From: a virus
Taxonomy: Duplodnaviria > Caudoviricetes
DNA length: 64,000 nt
Direction: 5' to 3' (one strand)
Virus record (IMG/VR): IMGVR_UViG_3300010163_000003
Span: 32,001-96,000 of that record
Part shown: piece after piece, positions 18,322-29,953 of the stretch
Layout of the letters: every line of letters begins with the position of its first letter
How positions within the stretch are numbered: position 1 is the first letter of the stretch
Notes under the pieces: generated by a model
Database searches by the model: none
The model's input: the letters and a program-made list of their open reading frames with translations, nothing else
Told to the model about the DNA's origin: nothing
Program-made: the position numbers and the translations under genes

Positions 18322-19487
18322 ATCCAAATAAAAAGAAAAACTTAATGAAAACTATTGAAGGTATCAATAAACAATTTGGAGCTGATACAGTTATGACTGC
18401 TGCTAATGCAATGGCGGCAGGCAAACTTACTAAAAAAAGAATCAAGACTCCATCATTAGAGTTTAATGATATGCTTCATGGAGGTTTCGCAAGTATCGTT
18501 GAATTATTTGGACCTACTGGTTCAGGTAAAACTTCACTTGCTATTGAAACCATTGCCTTAGCACAAAAAGAAGACCCCGATTTTATTGCCGCTTGGTTAG
18601 AAACAGAGGGGTCAGTTACCGCAGAAATTCTTGCCGCTCATGGTATAGATATGGAGCGTTTAGTATTTTGGAGGCAAGAAGATGTGGGCAATGCCGAAAA
18701 CGCTCTCGATATCGCTAGGGGCTTTATTAACGGTGGCGATATTGATCTTATGGTTGTTAACTCTATCGCAGGATTAGCTCCAAAGGTAGAGACGGAAGAT
18801 GACTTAGAGAAACAAAACATAGCTCTTACTGCTCGTTTGTTATCTAAGTTCTTTAGAGTTGCCACAAGTGCAGCATCTAAGAATGATATTGTTCTTCTGT
18901 TTATCAATCAGATACGCGATAATGTTGGCGTTATGTATGGAGACCCTACAACTACTCCTGGAGGTAAAGCTCTTGGATTCTTTGCAAGTCAACGTATCCG
19001 TATGAGTAAAGTTAAGCTCCAAAAGAGCGACCCGATATCCGAACAAGATGGATTAAAGATATCCTGTTCGACGTACAAGAATAGGTTTGCTAACGGAGAG
19101 AATCCTTACACTAAATGTACCTATTATGCAACTTATGCTAATGGTATAGATTCTATTGTAGCTATTCCTCAATTGCTTCTTAACGCAAAGATAGTACGTC
19201 AAGCTGGTGCATGGTGGTATTATGAAAATGAAAACGGTGAACCGATCACCTTCAATGGAGCGGTTTGTAAATGGAGAAGTCATTCTGCTTTTATTGATGC
19301 TCTCAGAAGCGATAAACAGTTGACTCAAATGTTTATCAATAAACTCAATGGTCAATTGGCAGAAGATCAAAGCGCTGAAGAAGAAGCAGAGGCTAAACAA
19401 ATGCAATCAAGAATCAATCAAGAAGGTGATGCTATGGAACGAAGCATCGAAACAGATGAAATAAATACTGTTCTTACAGAAAATTAA
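18318..19487 (+). CDS. recA: RecA/UvsX recombinase
   Basis: IVELFGPTGSGKTS, VVNSIAGL, FINQIRDNVGVMYGDPTTTPGGKALGFFAS, AGAWWYY. Confidence 0.95.
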   Translation: MNPNKKKNLMKTIEGINKQFGADTVMTAANAMAAGKLTKKRIKTPSLEFNDMLHGGFASIVELFGPTGSGKTSLAIETIALAQKEDPDFIAAWLETEGSVTAEILAAHGIDMERLVFWRQEDVGNAENALDIARGFINGGDIDLMVVNSIAGLAPKVETEDDLEKQNIALTARLLSKFFRVATSAASKNDIVLLFINQIRDNVGVMYGDPTTTPGGKALGFFASQRIRMSKVKLQKSDPISEQDGLKISCSTYKNRFANGENPYTKCTYYATYANGIDSIVAIPQLLLNAKIVRQAGAWWYYENENGEPITFNGAVCKWRSHSAFIDALRSDKQLTQMFINKLNGQLAEDQSAEEEAEAKQMQSRINQEGDAMERSIETDEINTVLTEN

Positions 19488-19512
19488 AAAATAAAATAAG
19501 GAGGAAGTTCCC

Positions 19513-20238
19513 GTGCCTACTAATCTTAGTATGCTCAATGAGCAGCAGAGGGCTGCTGTACTGGAAAGTGTTAACCATAATGTAGTTCTCCTAGCTGGAG
19601 CTGGCTCAGGGAAAACTTCTACGCTCATTAAAAGGACTCAGTATCTTATTGATGATCTTGGTGTGAGTCCTGAAAACATTATGATGATTACGTTTACCAA
19701 CAAGGCTGCGAATGAAATTAAAAGCCGTGTTGCAAACGTATCAAAGGACTATTATAAAATGTGGATTGGAACATTCCATCACATTTGTTGCCGTATAATG
19801 CGTATGTTTGGTAGCAAACTTGGTATCGAGAATTTTACTATTCTCGATACCAAAGATGCTAAAAACATTATTAAAGAAATCCTTACTTCTCGTAGTATAG
19901 ACGCTAGCCGTTATGTCATTAATGGTATGGCGGCTAAAATTTCTAAGTTTAAGAATGATTTAGTTAGACCAGCTAAGGTATTATCCGATGGCAAAGAAGA
20001 TAAACTCATAGCAGATGTATATCAAGAATACCAGAATATCTGCTGGAGGAAAAAATGTTTTGATTTCGATGATCTTATTATATATGCCATCCTTCTTCTT
20101 AACTCTTACTCTGATGTTGCTGACTGGATTCATAACACTATTAAGTATCTCATGGTTGATGAGACTCAAGATACAAACAGTGCTCAATTCACCCTCATTA
20201 ACCTTATTAGTGGCAATAACAATGTTATGTGCGTCGGT
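19513..20238 (+). CDS. uvrD: UvrD/PcrA SF1 helicase, exon 1
   Basis: LNEQQ, AGAGSGKT, ITFTNKAA, GTFH, VDETQDTN, ends at VG of motif III. Confidence 0.93.
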
Positions 20239-20633
20239 AAATAACATTGCTGACGTTAAACCGTACTAATTGCGGGAAAGTCGTATATTATATAGATACC
20301 GCTTTATGTTGGAAACAACATAAGTAAGCAGATAAGTTAACTCTTATTGGATGGTAATAAGTCTATATAAATGACAATCACATCAAAACGCAGCCAGGTT
20401 CCCTAACGTAAAGGCGAGGGAGCAAGGTTCATCGACTAGGGAAAGCTATAGACGCTGAAATACGCGGTGAAAATAAGGTAGAGTAACATCTACACGAAGC
20501 AAGTAGACGTAGTGCCATTTTTGCATGGTTGGTCTTAAGTAATAACCCATTTAAGGGAAGTAGCTTAATATAAAATCCATTAAAACGAAATGAGCGGCGG
20601 CTAAATAGCCGAAGATATAGTCAGTTTAAACTA

Positions 20634-20662
20634 TTGCAATATCTAAAACTATATGATATAAT
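20634..20662 (+). promoter_or_regulatory. SigmaA-type promoter for the intron 3 endonuclease
   Basis: TTGCAA-17-TATAAT with TG extension. Confidence 0.75.
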
Positions 20663-20693
20663 ATTCCTACCAATAAAGAAAGGGGTATTATAT

Positions 20694-21395
20694 ATGCAAA
20701 AATATAGTCTCGATGAAAATTATTTTGACGTTATCGATACAGAACATAAAGCATATTGGCTAGGCTTTCTTTATGCTGATGGTTCTCTGTCAAAAACCAC
20801 TTCAAGTAGTAGTGGAAAGAATCGATTGCAACTTACGTTGTCAGTAAATGATATAGAGCAACTTGAAAAATTCAAAAATGATTTAAACTTTACTGGTCCT
20901 ATTCATAAAAGTACTCTTTCTAATGCTTATAAAATGGACACTGAAGTCTGTTATATGCATATCAATTCAAGACCATTATGTATCTCATTAGAGAGACATG
21001 GATTTGAATTAAAAGATAATAGAGTAGCTATTCCTAATATGTCTAAAGATTTAATACCTCATTTTATTCGTGGATATTTTGATGGTGATGGATGTATTAG
21101 TGTATTTGAATATGACGCTAAAAGAAGCAATGGAAAGACTTATCACAGGTATTGTCAAGAATTTTCTATTACTTCTAACGAAGATATATTACAAGAGTTT
21201 AAAAGTATTTTTGAAAAAGAATGTAATGTATCTAAAAGGGTAAAATTCAAAGTTTATAATCGTACATCTAAAGCTGTATCTTTAAGATATGGTGGCAAAC
21301 AAGATGTTATTTCTCTTTATCATTATATGTACGATAATGCTACCATCTATATGGCAAGAAAGTACAATAATTTTCAACAAGTTTTATTGCGATAG
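20694..21395 (+). CDS. Intron-encoded LAGLIDADG homing endonuclease
   Basis: KAYWLGFLYADG and HFIRGYFDGDG; RBS gaaagggg. Confidence 0.9.
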   Translation: MQKYSLDENYFDVIDTEHKAYWLGFLYADGSLSKTTSSSSGKNRLQLTLSVNDIEQLEKFKNDLNFTGPIHKSTLSNAYKMDTEVCYMHINSRPLCISLERHGFELKDNRVAIPNMSKDLIPHFIRGYFDGDGCISVFEYDAKRSNGKTYHRYCQEFSITSNEDILQEFKSIFEKECNVSKRVKFKVYNRTSKAVSLRYGGKQDVISLYHYMYDNATIYMARKYNNFQQVLLR

Positions 21396-21401
21396 CAAAC
21401 G

Positions 21402-22574
21402 GATGTTAATCAAAGTATCTATGCATTTCGTAATGCAAAGCCTCAATACCTTGAGTATTTCGCAGACCACAGAGCAAATACTATAAAGCTAAAACTAGAA
21501 CAAAATTATCGCTCTAGTAAAACTATTATTGATGCTGCAAATCATGTAGTTAATCACAACGTTTTTGGCACCAAGCTTAAAATGTTTTGTACTAACGAAA
21601 CAGGTTCGCCTATCTCATATTATACAGCTCAGAATTCTACTGATGAAGCACGTTGGATAGTTTCAGAAATTAAAGCTAGTGGTAAACCATATTCTGATTT
21701 TGCAGTTATCTATCGCACTAATGTACAATCTCGTCTTATAGAACAAGAACTTACCAAAGCTGGTGTTGGATATACTATCTTTGGCTCTCAATCATTTTAT
21801 ACTCGTAAAGAAGTACGTGACCTAATTGCTTATTGCAAAGCAGTTATTAATCCTAATGACGAGGAGGCGTTTCGTCGTGTTCTCGGAACTCTTAAAGGTG
21901 TTGGCAAAGTTACTATCAATAACATGGTTAACAATGCTAGGGCTAAAGGTCTTAACATGCATTGTGCAATTAAATCTTATGCCAATAGTGCCTCCCTTAG
22001 CTCTAGCGTGCGTGTGCGTTTATCTCGCGTTGATGGAATCCTAAACCATACGTATACTAAATGTTCAGATATCATCAATGATGTCTTGTTTCTTACAGAA
22101 TATCGTACAGAGTTACGCGCAGTACAGACTGAAGAGACTATTGAAAAGCTTGCTATTATAGATGAATTTGAAGAAATGGTTAAAACTATGGAAGCTAATA
22201 ATAAAGATCAGTCTATGGTTGAAACTATTGATCAGATATCTACGCTTTCTGATGCTAAAGGCGCAGAAAAAGAACAGCTTAATGCTGTAAAACTTATGAC
22301 TGCACATGCATCTAAAGGTCTTGAGTTTGAGAATGTGTTTATTATTGGAACAGAAGAGGGTTCTTTCCCTCATGCAAATGCTATCAATACTCATAAGTCT
22401 GAAGCTATTGAAGAAGAACGTCGCTTGTTCTATGTAGCTATGACTCGTGCTAAGAAACATTTGTATATTACCAATGCCAAGCGTATTGGTAATATTTCTG
22501 ACGGATTTACATTCGCAAGACCAAGCAGATTTATTAAAGAAATCCCTTCTAATCTCATAGAAGAAGCATTTTAA
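21402..22574 (+). CDS. uvrD: UvrD/PcrA helicase, exon 2; spliced protein 632 aa
   Basis: DVNQSIYAFR, LEQNYRS, AVIYRTN, MTAHASKGLEF, EERRLFYVAMTRAK, PSRFI; in frame with the 21582 ORF. Confidence 0.93.
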   Translation, partial: DVNQSIYAFRNAKPQYLEYFADHRANTIKLKLEQNYRSSKTIIDAANHVVNHNVFGTKLKMFCTNETGSPISYYTAQNSTDEARWIVSEIKASGKPYSDFAVIYRTNVQSRLIEQELTKAGVGYTIFGSQSFYTRKEVRDLIAYCKAVINPNDEEAFRRVLGTLKGVGKVTINNMVNNARAKGLNMHCAIKSYANSASLSSSVRVRLSRVDGILNHTYTKCSDIINDVLFLTEYRTELRAVQTEETIEKLAIIDEFEEMVKTMEANNKDQSMVETIDQISTLSDAKGAEKEQLNAVKLMTAHASKGLEFENVFIIGTEEGSFPHANAINTHKSEAIEEERRLFYVAMTRAKKHLYITNAKRIGNISDGFTFARPSRFIKEIPSNLIEEAF

Positions 22575-22586
22575 GGGGGAAGAATT

Positions 22587-23234
22587 ATGGCGGATAAAGG
22601 CTATAATTATAAAGATAAAGGCTCAGTAAAATTAAGTGATGAGTTTAGACAAAAATTTATTGTAAACATTAAAGGGAAAGAAGCAGTTAAGTTGGAAGGC
22701 TTAACTGTACTTGCTCATGAGAAAGGACTTTGGAAACTTGAAACAGAGATTATTCAGTTCCCTAGCGACGCTAATCAGTGGACTGCTATATGCCGTACTA
22801 CAGTGGGTGGTTATGACTATGACCCAGTTACTGACAAGATACGTGAAGTCATATACTCAGACATTGGCGATGCAAACCCCAGCAACTGTACTAAGCTGGT
22901 AGCTGCATCTTATATCCGTATGGCTTCTACACGTTCACAAGGACGTGCGTTAAGAAAATATACGGATATAGATATGGTATGTTCGTCTGAACTTGATAAT
23001 GCGACGGAAGAACCACCAGAATCAATTATAACAATTGAACAGCTTACAGAAGTAAAGAAGATGCTAAAAGAGAAAGGATTCAATCAAGAAAAGTTTGGTG
23101 CCTTATTATTTAATCTCTTTAAACACCAGAACTTCGCGCAGTTAACTATGTCTCAGGGTGACATACTAATCAATACATTACATTCCTATCCAGATATACA
23201 AAAACAAAATGAAAATGTCAATGATGCCAGTTAA
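22587..23234 (+). CDS. Putative Rad52-like single-strand annealing protein
   Basis: DIGDANP...IRMASTRSQGRALR resembles the MAETRA.GRALR helix of Rad52-like proteins. Confidence 0.5.
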   Translation: MADKGYNYKDKGSVKLSDEFRQKFIVNIKGKEAVKLEGLTVLAHEKGLWKLETEIIQFPSDANQWTAICRTTVGGYDYDPVTDKIREVIYSDIGDANPSNCTKLVAASYIRMASTRSQGRALRKYTDIDMVCSSELDNATEEPPESIITIEQLTEVKKMLKEKGFNQEKFGALLFNLFKHQNFAQLTMSQGDILINTLHSYPDIQKQNENVNDAS

Positions 23235-23268
23235 ACATGGTATATCTTATTAAAAAGGAAGTGATATA

Positions 23269-23781
23269 ATGATTACAGAGTATAACTATGATAATGCAAT
23301 GAAAGTATTAGAACAATTTAAAGATTCTAACATTGCTACATTATACATTAAAAATGAAAATGGTATATGTGTAATGGAATATACTCTAGTGGAAAGTTAT
23401 CATCCCGAATTAAGAGATAAAATTTCTGCTCGACTTAGAACTGTAATGCCTCAACGGTTAGGGTTAATTAAAATCTTGAATGATTTTATCATCACTAGAA
23501 CAGTAGATCCTAGCGTGTCACTTAATCTTGAATTTAATGCTGTAGAATCAGATAAACCAAAAATATTGTACACATTGAATGGCAACATGTTACAAAGTGA
23601 AGATTATGTAGGATTACTCGACAAATGTATGAATAAAATTGATTTTCTTACAGGGAAGCTTGGTATAGGAAACCTTCCTGTTGATGGCCTGTTCCGCAAA
23701 ATAGGTACAGGTAAAGGAAGAAAGCATATACCAGTAACTGTTAAAGACGTAATATGTGCGTTAAACAAAACCGTTCACTAA
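23269..23781 (+). CDS. Hypothetical protein
   Basis: 170-aa ORF with RBS. Confidence 0.65.
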   Translation: MITEYNYDNAMKVLEQFKDSNIATLYIKNENGICVMEYTLVESYHPELRDKISARLRTVMPQRLGLIKILNDFIITRTVDPSVSLNLEFNAVESDKPKILYTLNGNMLQSEDYVGLLDKCMNKIDFLTGKLGIGNLPVDGLFRKIGTGKGRKHIPVTVKDVICALNKTVH

Positions 23782-23784
23782 TTG

Positions 23785-23822
23785 AACTCCCCCTACCAAA
23801 TTAAAGGTAGGGGGAGTTTTCT
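23785..23822 (+). terminator. Intrinsic terminator
   Basis: 13-bp stem aactccccctacc/ggtagggggagtt followed by T residues. Confidence 0.8.
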
Positions 23823-23834
23823 GTTAAATATATA

Positions 23835-23883
23835 TTGTAAATGCTTTTGAAATGTATTATAATATATGTAACTTAATGTTGCA
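23835..23883 (+). promoter_or_regulatory. SigmaA-type promoter of the sbcCD operon followed by the 20-bp motif
   Basis: TTGTAA-17-TATAAT (23835-63); atatgtaacttaatgttgca at 23864-83. Confidence 0.7.
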
Positions 23884-23898
23884 AAACGAGAGGTTAAT

Positions 23899-26298
23899 AT
23901 GAAAATATTACATGTCACAGACTCACATGGTACAATGAAAAGTCCTGAAAGCAGAAAAGATATATACTATATAGCATTTCTGCGTAAGTTATACGAGCTT
24001 GGACTTGTCGTAAAGAAGGAAAATATAAACGTTGTAGTGCACACTGGTGACTTGTTTCATACTCCAAGGGTATCCAATAAATTTGCAGGTCAAGTATCCG
24101 AGATGATTAAAGACATGGGTATTCCATTCTACGTAGTACCAGGTAATCATGATATCGAAGGATACAACATAGATACTATTGACCAAACAATGCTTGGATT
24201 ACTTTCAAAAACTGGTGTAATTACCATACTTGATAGAAGCCACCCAGTTACTCTTGATGTTCATGAAGATGGAGAATCATATACAGTTGCTTTAAGTGGA
24301 CAGGAGTATTATGCAAACATTGACAGGGGGAATCCACAAGATTTTGAAATGCAGCAGTGCGAAGCGGATATTAACATATTGGGCTATCATGGTTATTTAT
24401 CTAATATTGATCAACCTCCTGGGATTATCTATACTCCTACCAATAGTGTTATTACCGACGCTGATATTATCCTTAGTGGACATTATCACAGACAATTTGA
24501 AGCCGTAGTTGGGGATGTAAGTATATATAATCCTGGTTCCATGATGCGTGTAGACCAAACTGATTATAATAGAACACATACTCCACAATATGGTATACTT
24601 CATATATCTGTTGATGATAATATCGGTCTTCAATATGAATACACATTTCATAAATTTAAATGTGCAGTCCCATCAGAAACAGTATTTGACTATAGCGGAA
24701 AGGGTCAAGATAAACAATTTAAGATAAGTTTGGATGGCTTTAAAAATTCTATCATAAATTCAATGAGTTCTATTCAAACTGGAACAGATGTATTAAAAAG
24801 TATACAAGACATTATTAACACATTTGATCCTCAAGATGTTCTTCTACAAGATGTAGGTAAATCTGCTATATCTGCTTATCAATCTGCTTATACTGTTATG
24901 TCTCGTAACGATGTAGTCAGTCAGGGATACGTTCCTGATACAAATTATAAGTCTATAGTTAGAGTTACAATTGATGGCTTTCAATCTCACAAAAATACTG
25001 ATATTGTTTTCAATAATACAAGTGGATTAACTGTTATTTCTGGTGAATCAAACAATGGGAAAACCTCTATTTTTAGGGCCATCATGTGGGCAATTGATAA
25101 CTATCCGTTAGGCAATGCTTTTATTACAGCGGGAGAAAAAGTATGTAACGTTACAATTTACTTCAGCGACGGCTCAAGTATAACTCGTGTAAGAAGTATC
25201 AATGATACTGGTAGTTATATTGTAGATAATCCTGTGAATGGAATGCCTGTTCTTAAAACATATAAAGGTTTCACTAATTGTATTCCTGTTGAAGTTGAGA
25301 ACACACATCAAATGCCTAAAATACCTGTTACAAGAGATATACCTACGCATCTTAATGTTATGTCTCAACTTGACCCCCCTTTCTTAATTTCTGAAAGCCC
25401 ACAGAATAAAGCGGCTGCTATAGGTAATATTACTGGAACAAATATTGCCGATACTGCTATAAGAGCTTTAAAGGCTTCTATTAGGACTGGTAAATTTATA
25501 TGTGATGAGTCTGATAAAAAGATTATTAAGAAGCAATCCGAATTAGATGCATTACCTAGCGTCGAATTATTAGATGAAGCATCTAATGTTAGTTCAAAGA
25601 TAGAAGGTTTCATCAGGTGTTCTGAAAAGTTTATTAACGATGAAACATCTCATTATAATAATCTTCAGTCGCTCGACCAAGAAATACAGAAAGAAGATGC
25701 TAACGCATCTAAATATAAATCCCTTCTTGTGTTAAATCCCATTATTGAATTGGCAGATGAATATCGGATACAAACAGCTACTTGTCTCACGTATATTGAA
25801 CAAAATAATGCATTACTAGAAGAGACTGACAAGTGTAATGCTTTGTTGCGTCAACACCAATTTATGTCCACTGTCAAACAAGCATCTGAATATGCTGCTG
25901 ATCAATTACAATCTTTGCAAAAATTAAGCAATATACTTTCTGCGTATAATATATGTACTCAAAATATTGCAAAGGAAACAGATACTATTCAATTAATCCA
26001 AGGTTATTTAACGTTGTCTAATAGTATCACTAACTATATTTCTACCATTACATCGTTTGTAAAAACATTGATGCATCCTATGTCGCAATTAAATGACGTA
26101 GATAATGAAATAGAAAAGGGAAAGAAATCCCTTAGCTCTATTAAGAAATTATTAAGGAATGCCAATGCTGAACTAGAATGGCAAAGAAATGATAGAATTA
26201 ATTTCATTCTAAAGAATGGAATATGCCCGTGCTGTGGTCAGCCTGTTGAAACTGAAGAACAAGCTGAACATATTGGACATTTTATGGAGGAGACATAA
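23899..26298 (+). CDS. Mre11/SbcD nuclease fused to the N-terminal half of Rad50/SbcC (Walker A, coiled coil, zinc hook)
   Basis: LHVTDSH, HTGDLF, PGNHD, SGHYH, YNPGS; then IDGFQSH, GESNNGKTS, Q-loop SQLD, terminal CPCCGQ. Confidence 0.88.
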   Translation: MKILHVTDSHGTMKSPESRKDIYYIAFLRKLYELGLVVKKENINVVVHTGDLFHTPRVSNKFAGQVSEMIKDMGIPFYVVPGNHDIEGYNIDTIDQTMLGLLSKTGVITILDRSHPVTLDVHEDGESYTVALSGQEYYANIDRGNPQDFEMQQCEADINILGYHGYLSNIDQPPGIIYTPTNSVITDADIILSGHYHRQFEAVVGDVSIYNPGSMMRVDQTDYNRTHTPQYGILHISVDDNIGLQYEYTFHKFKCAVPSETVFDYSGKGQDKQFKISLDGFKNSIINSMSSIQTGTDVLKSIQDIINTFDPQDVLLQDVGKSAISAYQSAYTVMSRNDVVSQGYVPDTNYKSIVRVTIDGFQSHKNTDIVFNNTSGLTVISGESNNGKTSIFRAIMWAIDNYPLGNAFITAGEKVCNVTIYFSDGSSITRVRSINDTGSYIVDNPVNGMPVLKTYKGFTNCIPVEVENTHQMPKIPVTRDIPTHLNVMSQLDPPFLISESPQNKAAAIGNITGTNIADTAIRALKASIRTGKFICDESDKKIIKKQSELDALPSVELLDEASNVSSKIEGFIRCSEKFINDETSHYNNLQSLDQEIQKEDANASKYKSLLVLNPIIELADEYRIQTATCLTYIEQNNALLEETDKCNALLRQHQFMSTVKQASEYAADQLQSLQKLSNILSAYNICTQNIAKETDTIQLIQGYLTLSNSITNYISTITSFVKTLMHPMSQLNDVDNEIEKGKKSLSSIKKLLRNANAELEWQRNDRINFILKNGICPCCGQPVETEEQAEHIGHFMEET

Positions 26299-26301
26299 TA
26301 T

Positions 26302-26673
26302 ATGAGTAGAACGAGTCATAAAAAATCTGTAAAAACTCCCCCTGTATTTAGGTGTGGACAAATCATACGACATTTTAAATACTGGCAATGTACTTTGAAA
26401 GACAGAAAAGCGAACAGATATATGTACAAAATTATTGGAATTGGTATGCTTCCTGATAATGATACTCCTATGATGGTATATCAAGCATTATATAAACCTT
26501 ACAATGCATACATCCGTCCACTTTCTATGGCTCGTGATCTTGTTGATAAAACATTATACCCTAAAGCACGACAAACTTATCGCTTTGAAATATGGAGTGA
26601 AGAAAATGAATTATGCAGAAACCCTCAACAGTTACGAACAGACACTAAATACACTCAAAGAGCAATGTGCTAA
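26302..26673 (+). CDS. DUF1653-like protein
   Basis: IRHFK, YKIIGI, MVYQALY, YIRP, YP.ARQTYRFE. Confidence 0.7.
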   Translation: MSRTSHKKSVKTPPVFRCGQIIRHFKYWQCTLKDRKANRYMYKIIGIGMLPDNDTPMMVYQALYKPYNAYIRPLSMARDLVDKTLYPKARQTYRFEIWSEENELCRNPQQLRTDTKYTQRAMC

Positions 26674-26923
26674 TGCTGAGAAGAATGCAATCATTGCCGA
26701 GACCAACCTTAAGTCTTTAAAGGATAGGAAGAAACAGCTTGTTGATGAGTGCGTTAAAGCTACAGGTAAATCTATCGAAGAGCTTCCTAGTCTTTTAGAG
26801 GAGCAAAAAAAGAATCTCGATGCTATTATGGAAAGCTTATCTAAGATTCATTTTGGTGGAGAGATCACAGAAGATACTGTTAATGCACTGAAAGAAATAG
26901 CTGAACGTTTTAATATAAAGTGA
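26606..26923 (+). CDS. Coiled-coil protein (possible missing Rad50 coil segment)
   Basis: Start at the ATG after ggag; heptad-rich 105 aa. Confidence 0.65.
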   Translation: MNYAETLNSYEQTLNTLKEQCANAEKNAIIAETNLKSLKDRKKQLVDECVKATGKSIEELPSLLEEQKKNLDAIMESLSKIHFGGEITEDTVNALKEIAERFNIK

Positions 26924-26930
26924 GGCTATT

Positions 26931-27647
26931 ATGAGGCATAAGACAAGTGATTTCTATATCGCATTAGGTGCTATAAAAGATCAAGCAATGGTTGCAAAAG
27001 CACTTAGGCGTGAGATTGAAAAAGATATAAAAGAAGCTAAGCAATGTAAGAAAAAAGAAAAACATTCTGTAGAAGTAGACACAAAAGCTATAGAGCTTAT
27101 AAAGTCAGCTTCTGATGCTTCTCGTTCAAGTGTTAAAACACATTTTGAAGACATTGTTACTCAAGCTCTTCAGTTTGTTACCCAGAGTTCTGATTATAAA
27201 TTCATTATTGAAGAGAAGAATTCTGGTAACAAACCAGGATATGAATTTTATATTCAATCTTCTGTTAATGGAACAGTAACTAAACAAAAACCAGAGGACG
27301 CTAACGGCGGAGGGTTTGTTGATATCATTTCTGTTTCATTAAAGTTTGCGTACCTTATATTGTTTAGCAATCCTACAATTAAAAATTCAACTATACTTCT
27401 TGATGAACCAGGTAAAATGATATCAAATGCGATGTCGATTAAATTTGCAGAGTATCTTAAATTCCTTGCTCAGCAATATAACAAACAAATTATTATGATT
27501 ACCCATAATGAAAATCTAATCAATCTTGCTAATGAACATTTTACTGTAGTAAAAGACGTTAATGGCATAAGTAATGTCGTTAACGAAAAAGACTTACCAC
27601 TAAACCTTTTAATGGATTTATTTAACGGTACTGAAACGGAGGAATAA
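26931..27647 (+). CDS. C-terminal half of the Rad50/SbcC ATPase
   Basis: Signature-like ANGGG, Walker B/D-loop ILLDEPG, H-loop QIIMITH; no Walker A. Confidence 0.85.
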   Translation: MRHKTSDFYIALGAIKDQAMVAKALRREIEKDIKEAKQCKKKEKHSVEVDTKAIELIKSASDASRSSVKTHFEDIVTQALQFVTQSSDYKFIIEEKNSGNKPGYEFYIQSSVNGTVTKQKPEDANGGGFVDIISVSLKFAYLILFSNPTIKNSTILLDEPGKMISNAMSIKFAEYLKFLAQQYNKQIIMITHNENLINLANEHFTVVKDVNGISNVVNEKDLPLNLLMDLFNGTETEE

Positions 27648-27651
27648 TAAT

Positions 27652-28383
27652 ATGCAATTAGCACTTGTTAATGGAGACAAACAACTCGTTATCAATTTTG
27701 ATGGATTCAGGGTTGATAGTATTGAAGAAATTAGTGCATTGATGACCGAAGCAGGTAAACTTTTCAACACATATGATAACCATGTTTGTCATTGTAAAGA
27801 GAAGTCAAGCTCTAATGCACCTACTCATGTACCTGCTCCTCCACAAGAGCGTGACTTCTCTGTCCGTGAAAGATTGCCAAACAATGTCGTAGATCTTAGC
27901 ACCTTGAATGTTAAACAAGCTAAAGCATCTAATGTTCTTGTTCGTTGTCCTTCATGTGGTCAGAGTCATTGTGTAATGGTTAAGCTTGAAAATGAAAGTT
28001 ATTTCATGCGTAAAGATTATAAATTACAAGAATTTATAATCATTGGTCATTACCCTGTCGAATTTGATTGTATTAAACATGCATATATTCAATATGGCGA
28101 AAAGCCCAATGATTATTTCAAACGGATACAATCAATGGGAGAAATAAATTCTAATGATTTCAATGTGTCGCCTGACACTGAATTATTTTGCCCTATTTGT
28201 GGCAAGGGTGACGAATTCAAGTCATGGAATGACGCATGGGAACATCCAGAAAAATATTTTGAACATGAGCATATATGTGAAGCATGTGGCGGAGAGTGTT
28301 CTCTTATCGTAAGTAAAGATAATACTGATAACCATATGGACAAATATAAGTGTGAAACATGCGGCTCACTGTGGGATGATTAA
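27652..28383 (+). CDS. Multi-zinc-ribbon hypothetical protein
   Basis: CPSC, CPIC, CEAC, CETC pairs. Confidence 0.7.
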   Translation: MQLALVNGDKQLVINFDGFRVDSIEEISALMTEAGKLFNTYDNHVCHCKEKSSSNAPTHVPAPPQERDFSVRERLPNNVVDLSTLNVKQAKASNVLVRCPSCGQSHCVMVKLENESYFMRKDYKLQEFIIIGHYPVEFDCIKHAYIQYGEKPNDYFKRIQSMGEINSNDFNVSPDTELFCPICGKGDEFKSWNDAWEHPEKYFEHEHICEACGGECSLIVSKDNTDNHMDKYKCETCGSLWDD

Positions 28384-28393
28384 GGAGGATATT

Positions 28394-28696
28394 ATGAAAA
28401 GTAATGAGATCCGTGAAGTTTTAAAGGCTCTTGAAAGCGATTTGTCTCCTGTGGCCGTAGGCGATTATTCTCCCAACAAAATGGCTCGAATGCTCAGGGA
28501 ACGTGGATTAATTAAATGTACAGCTGACATGAATCGTCTTGCTCTTGAGATGATACAGCAGATAATTAGAGATGGCGATGAAATCCCTGTTCATTATTAC
28601 AATAAGAACGAAGATATGCCTGAAGGCAGCAGAGTTATTAACGACGTCCCTTGTCTTACAGATGATTATATCGCTACTTACATGAGTGGAGAATAA
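28394..28696 (+). CDS. Hypothetical protein
   Basis: ATG after aaggagg. Confidence 0.65.
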   Translation: MKSNEIREVLKALESDLSPVAVGDYSPNKMARMLRERGLIKCTADMNRLALEMIQQIIRDGDEIPVHYYNKNEDMPEGSRVINDVPCLTDDYIATYMSGE

Positions 28697-28699
28697 TAT

Positions 28700-28717
28700 T
28701 CGCCCCTAACGGGGCGA
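28700..28717 (+). other. GC-rich intergenic hairpin
   Basis: tcgcccc-taac-ggggcga; no U-tract. Confidence 0.6.
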
Positions 28718-28744
28718 TAGTGAATATGTTTAAGGAGGTAGCCA

Positions 28745-29953
28745 ATGTACGACATTGATACTGCCGACTTAAAAGCTCATGCACCTCTTATTCCATATAT
28801 ACAGAATCATTATAAAAATAAAATCATTCCCGAAAAAAGAACTAAAGGGACAGTCTTTTGTAAATGCTTATGGCATCAAGAAGATACACCTTCATTAGCT
28901 TTCTTTGAGAATGGAACGTACAAGTGTTTCGGTTGCGGAGCGCACGGAGATGTTATATCTCTCGTGCGCTCCATTGAAGGTGTAGGCTTTGAAGAGGCAT
29001 GTAAAATTATCGCAGATAATGTAAACTATCCACTTATCATGCGTAATATTAATCCTGCTCATGAAATATATAAAGATAAACTCGATGAATTTAACCGTAG
29101 GTATTGGGCGAATCTTCAGAATAATTCTACTGCATTAAATTATGTCATGAACGTTAGAGGTATTAACGCTAACATGATTGACTTATATAGGCTAGGTTTT
29201 ACCGACTCAGAAGAATATAAATATCGAACTGATATTGGAAATATATCTTCTAAGTTAGTATTCCCAATACTTGAACATCGCAGACGAAAAGCAAAATGCG
29301 TAGGTATGGCTTATAGGACACTAGGCAATGACAAACCTAAGTATCTTAATGACCCTAATCAAGAAGGTAAACAAGGGCAAGATAACGCTTTAATAAATGT
29401 ATTTATTAAGGGCAACATGCTTTATGGTTTACCTCAAGCATACGAGGGCATATCTAAATTCAGATATGCTATTATTGTTGAAGGATATTTCGATGTTATC
29501 AGCTTATATCAAAGTGGATTAACAAATGCAGTAAGTACAATGGGAACTAATATAACAATGGCTCAACTTGATGCATTGAAAAAGATAACAGATAATGTTC
29601 TTATATGTTATGACGGAGATAATGCTGGTATAGAAGCCACTTCTAAAAACATTAAAAAGTTATTAGAGTATGGTTTCAATGTTGCTGTATGTTCTTTAAG
29701 TGCAGGGCAAGACCCTGCTGACTTATGCAAGTCATTAGATTTTAATTATTTTAAAGTTAATGATGCTATTAAAGAACACACAACACAAGGAATAGAATTT
29801 ATTGTTAGTCGAATCGTTCAACATTATGAAAGTATAGTTATTAAAGAAAGAATTAAAGCAGTGAAAGAGGGACTATCTTTTATTGAATGCATTAAAGATC
29901 CATCAATGAAAGAAGTGTTTAAAAATTATTTGAATAAGCGATTGGATATATAA
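28745..29953 (+). CDS. dnaG: DNA primase (DnaG type)
   Basis: CLWH..DTPS, CFGCG zinc finger, PKYLN, IVEGYFDV, CYDGDNAG, QDPAD. Confidence 0.93.
   Translation: MYDIDTADLKAHAPLIPYIQNHYKNKIIPEKRTKGTVFCKCLWHQEDTPSLAFFENGTYKCFGCGAHGDVISLVRSIEGVGFEEACKIIADNVNYPLIMRNINPAHEIYKDKLDEFNRRYWANLQNNSTALNYVMNVRGINANMIDLYRLGFTDSEEYKYRTDIGNISSKLVFPILEHRRRKAKCVGMAYRTLGNDKPKYLNDPNQEGKQGQDNALINVFIKGNMLYGLPQAYEGISKFRYAIIVEGYFDVISLYQSGLTNAVSTMGTNITMAQLDALKKITDNVLICYDGDNAGIEATSKNIKKLLEYGFNVAVCSLSAGQDPADLCKSLDFNYFKVNDAIKEHTTQGIEFIVSRIVQHYESIVIKERIKAVKEGLSFIECIKDPSMKEVFKNYLNKRLDI

Follow-up and report, generated by a model that had tools for sequence, protein, structure and literature searches.

The window analysed here is a stretch of 64,000 nucleotides that corresponds to bases 32001-96000 of IMG/VR record IMGVR_UViG_3300010163_000003, a complete 218,431-bp gut-phage record with direct terminal repeats. 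It carries a compact gene module that encodes, on separate polypeptides, the domains of an Mre11-Rad50 (SbcCD) nuclease, with the Rad50 chain broken just past its predicted zinc hook. The G+C content is about 34%, and the genes in the part of the window that holds the module are co-oriented. Four tightly packed open reading frames (ORFs) on the plus strand were found where the first-pass annotation had placed them. They encode an Mre11-Rad50 N-half fusion of 799 amino acids (aa; 23899-26298), a DUF1653 protein of 123 aa (26302-26673), a small helical protein of 105 aa (26606-26923), and a Rad50 C-half of 238 aa (26931-27647). Each of the four has its own GGAG/GAGG Shine-Dalgarno sequence and ATG, and the junctions between them are spacers of 1-13 nt or overlaps. 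For the small gene, the longest possible ORF begins at 26504 and encodes 139 aa; we placed the start at the ATG at 26606 because the homologues show it. The DUF1653 and 105-aa genes had been described as each having its own start and its own frame. Separate starts are indeed present, but the DUF1653 ORF lies in the frame of the 799-aa ORF, with the TAA and one codon between them. In relatives the DUF1653 ORF overlaps the hook-encoding gene in another frame, and the shared frame is therefore incidental.

The 799-aa protein begins with a nuclease domain. Pfam assigned Metallophos to residues 1-198 (E 5.5e-14) and AAA_23 to residues 355-652 (E 9.8e-11), an SMC_N match was also obtained, and in PHROGs the protein corresponds to phrog_16465, annotated as 'exonuclease'. 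The protein has all of the Mre11 metal ligands (D8, H10, D51, N83, H84, H164, H195 and H197), and none of them varies among 20 homologues. In fold comparisons with VIA, residues 1-260 (23899-24678) of the AlphaFold2 model (m11c3995b5b00) scored Z 22.7-23.2 against archaeal and human Mre11 (3av0_A, 3t1i_A and 3dsd_A) and Z 21.0 against Staphylococcus aureus SbcD, compared with 17.6 or less for purple acid phosphatase and other metallophosphoesterases; Foldseek matched the domain to Mre11 structures with E 4e-13. With motifs I-V complete and a fold nearer to Mre11 than to other metallophosphoesterases, this region is an Mre11/SbcD nuclease. The linker that follows (residues 261-350) was poorly modelled, as three predicted helices of low confidence, and the covalent fusion may replace the C-terminal helix-loop-helix of Mre11.

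Residues 351-530 (24949-25488) form the N-lobe of a Rad50 head, which contains the Walker A motif GESNNGKT (residues 382-389; 25042-25065) and the Q-loop residue Q490 (25366-25368). Besides the AAA_23 and SMC_N matches, this assignment is supported by the fold of residues 351-546, for which VIA gave Z 11.9 against 5h67_A, the N-terminal chain of a two-chain SMC head. A motif check for Walker B in the 799-aa protein was negative. Beyond the lobe, the AlphaFold2 model and the alignment of 20 homologues (about 45% identity) define an ascending arm helix (residues 515-773; 25441-26217) of about 260 residues that varies in sequence yet is free of insertions and deletions. It was modelled as helices 515-550, 555-652 and 657-773, followed by a turn with CPCC at residues 776-779 (26224-26235), a last helix at 786-798, and the end of the protein after a tail of 20 residues (26236-26295) and TAA. 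Conserved Pro motifs lie near residues 553, 614, 660 and 727 and coincide with dips in the predicted local distance difference test score (pLDDT), a hint that the arm is segmented. C776, P777, C778, C779, G780, Q781 and F795 are invariant across the 20 homologues, and the NCBIfam Rad50 models align residues 612-794 with the hook region in the middle of archaeal Rad50. CPCC is thus predicted from the sequence to be the CxxC zinc hook, and it would bind zinc as in Rad50.

The remainder of the Rad50 head is encoded by the 238-aa gene. AlphaFold2, run with a 50-sequence alignment, returned a model with pLDDT 92 in which a single helix (residues 2-84) precedes an alpha/beta lobe. The best Foldseek matches were the C-terminal chains of two-chain Rad50/SMC heads (5h66_B, 1xex_B, 1f2t_B and, with TMt 0.77, 1f2u_B), and the protein aligns with the C-termini of Escherichia coli SbcC and T4 gp46 over the signature, Walker B, D-loop and H-loop. 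The motif check located the signature at residues 125-128 (NGGG; 27303-27314), Walker B at D158/E159 (27402-27407) and the H-loop at H192 (27504-27506), and it found no P-loop in this protein. The family is represented in PHROGs by phrog_15167, 'ATPase' (E 6e-36). Searches of the PDB sequences with phmmer gave only marginal matches for the 238-aa and DUF1653 proteins, and recognition of the C-half needed the fold search. The first-pass annotation had described an ORF with phosphoesterase motifs, Walker A, Q-loop and coiled coil that stops about 20 residues after CPCC, and a separate gene with the signature, Walker B and H-loop; both descriptions agree with the domain and motif assignments made here. 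In the complete genome the Metallophos domain, the AAA_23 domain and the C-half each occur exactly once. The only possible partner of each Rad50 half is therefore the other half.

The break is not peculiar to this phage. We found 418 homologues of the fusion, and the 120 of them that were listed are all 792-804 aa long and come mostly from gut-metagenome contigs of about 200-220 kb. Contigs of the type of L003 and L005 (from pig gut and other sources; 45% identity) share the set of four genes, and the conserved set is also found in L010, L036 and L038 at 31-34% identity (loci are given by their L numbers). A cultured relative, Bacillus phage 0305phi8-36 (218,948 bp), encodes the fusion as gp8 (769 aa; A7KV18), which is 34% identical to the 799-aa protein over residues 1-569, the small protein as gp7 (92 aa) and the C-half as gp5 (236 aa), with an unrelated gp6 between the latter two. 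Five profiles (Mre11, N-lobe, coil plus hook, small protein and C-half) were run on the ORFs of 73 loci. In all of the roughly 30 non-redundant loci with a hook-bearing N-half, the ORF ends 5-36 residues past the last CxxC. At E<=1e-3 the stand-alone C-half family comprises 1,910 clusters, of which 454 remain at E<=1e-10. The best 150 relatives are all 89-323 aa long, and none of them is a full-length SbcC. The catalytic motifs are invariant in both halves. The break just after the zinc hook is therefore common to dozens of phages and Bacillota elements.

Four gene orders were distinguished by the position of Mre11. It is fused ahead of the N-half in the window, 0305phi8-36 and L031-L038 (type A); it follows the C-half in phBC6A51, vB_BboS-125 and L039 (type B); it precedes the N-half in Desulfofundulus thermobenzoicus and two Bacillota metagenome-assembled genomes (MAGs; type C); and it lies inside the break in L008, L040-L048, L054 and L061 (type D). 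Relatives with one continuous hook-bearing sbcC were sought in the 73 loci and not found. The single-chain forms that were seen are the controls, one coil-less form of 352 aa, and distant fusions (1,041-1,066 aa) that have no hook. The first-pass annotation had read the locus as a multi-chain Mre11-Rad50 arrangement and had named conservation of the split as a check on that reading; the hook-bearing relatives are all cut at the same point, and the arrangement is conserved rather than a product of decay. In a FastTree phylogeny of the C-lobes, the split forms and the coil-less form fall in one clade with support of 0.58, and the fused type is not monophyletic, for which reasons we draw no conclusion on the number of fusion origins. 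A megablast search with the region matched no phage record. A scan of viral contigs with a single protein found nothing; with an alignment as the query it succeeded.

Several variants were seen among the relatives. The coil-less form is a 352-aa protein encoded beside an Mre11 gene in a Peptococcaceae MAG (L021, 4194-5252); its N-lobe (residues 3-165) is joined to its C-lobe (residues 185-350) with neither arm nor hook, and it sits among the split forms in the C-lobe tree. The single-chain Mre11-Rad50 fusions of 1,041-1,066 aa without CxxC were found in IMG/VR (L050, L055, L058-L060, L063, L064, L066, L071 and L072) and are probably the R555-like family of Yoshida et al. (2011). In the linear record of Microbacterium phage Magritte (OR553905.1; L017), gene 155 encodes a 350-aa N-lobe protein that lacks CxxC, and gene 2, about 39-93 kb away, encodes an 'exonuclease' that resembles the C-half; the two may be a dispersed split. 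In L012, a 603-aa HerA/FtsK-like ATPase (DUF87; 823-2634) directly follows a stand-alone Rad50 C-half.

The small protein belongs with the C-half. In all four gene orders a protein of 77-114 aa is encoded directly upstream of the C-half, the exceptions being 0305phi8-36, where gp6 intervenes, and L008, which has no small gene between Mre11 and the C-half and has a C-half whose N-terminus is about 90 residues longer. Members of the family share a helix of about 50 residues and, beyond an invariant Gly (G54) and a turn that contains Pro, another of about 25. In 0305phi8-36 and L010 the small gene begins 7-13 nt after the hook-encoding gene. The constant position supports the 105-aa protein being a conserved partner of the C-half. 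Word-indexed searches with the 105-aa protein, and with the small-family alignment among longer proteins, returned nothing; as the index is weak for short divergent helices, this result carries little weight as to fused forms. A protein atlas gave no lead.

We propose, with a probability of about 80%, that the module encodes one SbcCD-type Mre11-Rad50 DNA-end nuclease built from at least three polypeptides. In this assembly the first chain (799 aa) would tether Mre11 covalently to the Rad50 N-lobe and continue through the ascending helix to CPCC, ending 20 residues later. The third chain (238 aa) would supply the C-lobe with the signature, Walker B, D-loop and H-loop behind its 83-residue helix. 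The two lobes would dock non-covalently to create the ATP site, in the manner of the engineered two-chain Rad50 heads. ATP would then clamp two composite heads together, and two CPCC motifs would share one zinc ion. The second chain (105 aa) may run beside the ascending helix as the middle of the returning strand, placed after the post-hook tail and before the helix of the third chain. The DUF1653 gene would be a passenger in a variable slot at the break point.

Whether the pieces can account for the arm was addressed by comparing lengths. The ascending length was estimated from the Walker A Lys to the first hook Cys, minus 114 for the remainder of the N-lobe, a value calibrated on the Pyrococcus furiosus Rad50 numbering. 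For the returning length, 87 was subtracted from the sum of the tail, the small protein and the stretch of the C-half up to Walker B. Applied to single-chain controls, the same formulas gave a difference (ascending minus returning) of −38 for E. coli SbcC and +6 for T4 gp46. For eight type D loci the median difference was +5.5 (range −15 to +28) with the small ORF counted and +79 without it. Because the lengths match only when it is counted, the small protein is just what would be needed to complete the type D arm. A scan of the helices for 3.5-residue periodicity was uninformative. We also considered several copies of the small protein tiling the returning strand and rejected this candidate, as the residuals are not quantised (72-91, 117-150, 175-193 and 218-279).

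Several observations weigh against the proposed assembly. The ascending strand exceeds the returning one by 78-85 residues in nine of ten type A loci (+78 in the window) and by 32 in L038, and the excess in types B and C is 62-202 residues. In the window the identified pieces could pair about 196 of about 274 ascending residues, so one-to-one pairing of the whole arm by pieces supplied in trans is impossible. No known coil segment is significantly similar to the small family, and a match of the family's hidden Markov model to the N-terminal extension of the L008 C-half was dropped as evidence of homology because it was too weak (E about 0.005 in a tiny database). The signature reads NGGG instead of the canonical SGGE/Q, and the model of the 799-aa chain reached only moderate confidence (pLDDT 65). 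Finally, the association of the chains is something that we infer, as are the stoichiometry, the position of the 105-aa protein and the binding of zinc. The earlier proposal of a complex of two to three chains with the returning coil supplied in trans is thus borne out in the conserved multi-chain gene set and in the matching lengths of type D, and falls about 78 residues short in this phage.

These length differences are also an argument for the strongest rival, which we regard as possible but rather unlikely. It keeps the multi-chain complex and gives the 105-aa protein an adaptor or regulatory role, for instance as a helical hairpin clamping the site where the N-half and C-half helices meet; the hook-proximal part of the ascending helix would then pair with that of the second protomer or fold back on itself, giving an arm that departs from the canonical intramolecular antiparallel coil. 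The returning pieces amount to about 135-207 residues compared with 141-355 in the ascending helix, with 78 left unpaired here and up to 202 in phBC6A51. Also in favour are the conserved break between the two helices of the small protein, with its invariant Gly and Pro-containing turn, and the four conserved Pro motifs with matching pLDDT dips that segment the ascending helix. On the other hand, the eight short-armed type D loci match in length only if the small protein is counted linearly, and L008 resembles a fusion of the small protein with the C-half.

A broader claim can be made tentatively, at less than even odds: that a large clade of phage and Bacillota Rad50 proteins is obligatorily multi-chain, cut after the hook, with a returning strand that consistently falls short of the ascending one in length. 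In that case the hook-proximal arm would be built unlike that of every solved Rad50 or SMC protein, for instance as an inter-protomer coil of two ascending helices or as a segmented bundle, and the arm would hold a built-in non-covalent gate beside the hook.

The gene at the break point could be considered a further subunit. The DUF1653 assignment comes from Pfam (PF07866, E 3.9e-7, above the cut-off), and the gene lies exactly at the break in the window, L003, L005 and L031. As an integral fourth subunit, its product would fill part of the missing returning strand or cap the hook, and its 123 residues would bring the length difference into the range of single-chain Rad50. We consider this improbable. 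The post-hook slot is empty in L035 (45% identity), L032, L034, L037, L010 and 0305phi8-36, which have the same arm lengths, and the DUF1653 protein itself varies from 91 to 154 aa while the arm stays constant. Other lineages have different occupants: DUF1292 in L036, unassigned ORFs in L038 and phBC6A51, and Mre11 in type D. In vB_BboS-125 the gene for gp33 (L016, 4017-4589), a homing-endonuclease-like protein with weak HNH_3 and AP2 matches, is located exactly between the hook-ending N-half and the small protein. Because arm lengths are equal with and without DUF1653, we regard the gene as a passenger, one that fills a variable slot in some loci only and stands outside the conserved set. In the window its ORF reaches 68 nt (26606-26673) into the small gene, and this overlap encodes a non-conserved C-terminal extension that has no counterpart in the DUF1653 proteins of relatives. 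Given the endonuclease-like occupant and the likeness to 'fractured genes' discussed below, insertion of a mobile gene could have caused the original break.

Restoration of a single Rad50 chain by RNA splicing, protein splicing or recoding might be suggested by the frame shared between the 799-aa and DUF1653 ORFs, but we judge it very improbable. The tight junctions, of 1-13 nt or overlapping and each with its own ribosome-binding site, leave no room for an intron core, and in 0305phi8-36 and L010 the small gene starts within 7-13 nt of the hook-encoding gene. The post-hook tail of 20 residues is too short for an intein fragment, and frames and spacers vary among relatives. An Rfam search of positions 19000-29000 gave no match at E<=1, which is a weak point in itself. 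That the split is an artefact or decay, through a mistake in assembly or sequencing or through loss of function of an sbcC pseudogene whose Mre11 part alone still matters, is hardly credible: beyond the unusual layout itself nothing speaks for it, whereas hundreds of assemblies made independently show the same break and protein lengths, as do the cultured phages 0305phi8-36, phBC6A51 and vB_BboS-125, the catalytic motifs are invariant in both halves, and the record is complete with terminal repeats.

The module is flanked by other features of note. A promoter-like site, TTGTAA-17-TATAAT (23835-23863, plus strand), precedes it and is the best plus-strand consensus match within 23200-29000; as a match to consensus only, it is weak evidence. 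A terminator scan gave no plus-strand match before a G+C-rich hairpin at 28700-28717, which is itself listed on the minus strand. Directly downstream of the C-half, a Cys-rich protein of 243 aa with several CxxC pairs is encoded on the plus strand (27652-28383). Homologues of 229-250 aa follow the C-half in L003, L005, L009 and L010, where the gene usually overlaps the stop codon of the C-half gene. This protein matched no family and a protein atlas gave no lead; it is a possible further member of the module. Upstream, a UvrD-like helicase (20634-22574, plus strand) is present as two ORFs of 253 and 330 aa, the latter with UvrD_C only. In L003, L005 and L010, UvrD is one ORF of 623-633 aa.

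In the usual description of Rad50 and of all other SMC-type proteins, a single chain ascends the arm, reverses at the hook or hinge and comes back to complete its own ATPase head. The module described here indicates that Rad50 need not be one continuous chain through the hook: a chain cut exactly at this point has been kept under selection in hundreds of phages. This bears on how signals pass along the arm and on the importance of the covalent turn at the hook. The natural pieces could be expressed separately, mixed, labelled, or omitted singly, and the cultured relative 0305phi8-36 (gp8, gp7 and gp5) allows genetics. The findings also provide names for three gene families that are very common in phages and at present carry the annotations 'exonuclease', 'hypothetical protein' and 'ATPase'.

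The fusion half of this arrangement is not new. Yoshida, Claverie and Ogata (2011; PMC3175470) described Mre11/Rad50 fusions in Mimivirus R555 and twelve other proteins, including 0305phi8-36 gp8, and thereby already published the joining of Mre11 to the Rad50 N-half. They reported that one P-loop NTPase segment was 'not observed' in gp8 and an Anaerostipes protein; gp8 also lacked, in their account, a region of the length of the capping or helix-loop-helix domain (PMC3175470). Anaerostipes caccae B0MG68 is among the proteins that the paper names. The genomics paper on 0305phi8-36 mentions only a 'DNA repair exonuclease'. Our protein shares with the fusions of Yoshida et al. an N-terminal Mre11 joined to Rad50. 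Proteins of the R555 type contain both lobes in one chain of about 1,040-1,350 aa, whereas here only the N-half of Rad50 is fused. The 'missing' ATPase segment, which was not located in the 2011 study, is a separate gene two or three genes downstream, accompanied by a conserved small partner, and the gap left for the 0305phi8-36 fusion is thus filled. A full-text literature search for a natural split Rad50 or SbcC found no paper.

Two other systems offer partial parallels. In the engineered two-chain Rad50/SMC heads (1F2T/1F2U, 1II8, 3QKR and 5H66), lobes on separate polypeptides form an ABC head, and the Rad50 structures among them demonstrate that non-covalent complementation of the lobes works in vitro. 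Those constructs are laboratory truncations without arm or hook; the phage system is natural, keeps its arm, and is cut at the hook rather than in the head. The 'fractured genes' of Dassa et al. (2009; PMC2677866) likewise distribute a repair or replication gene over pieces that are translated separately, and the gene found at the break varies and sometimes resembles an endonuclease. Here there is no split intein, for which neither the 20-residue tail nor the beginning of the small protein provides space, the slot in the window holds no endonuclease, and the break is ancient and fixed over a large clade rather than the result of a recent invasion.

With canonical SbcCD, as represented by E. 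coli SbcCD, T4 gp47-gp46 and P. furiosus Mre11-Rad50, the module shares the Mre11 fold and its ligands, the ABC head motifs distributed over two lobes, a long helical arm, the CxxC motif, and an operon context beside recA, uvrD and primase. It differs in that the Rad50 chain ends 20 residues past the hook and that the C-lobe and returning strand are separate gene products, in that Mre11 is fused to the N-terminus of Rad50 instead of docking via its C-terminal helix-loop-helix, and in that the returning pieces are about 78 residues shorter than the ascending helix. The system would be Rad50-like in its working, yet it is not a single-chain Rad50. It is a widespread new version of a known machine, in which the fusion half was already known.

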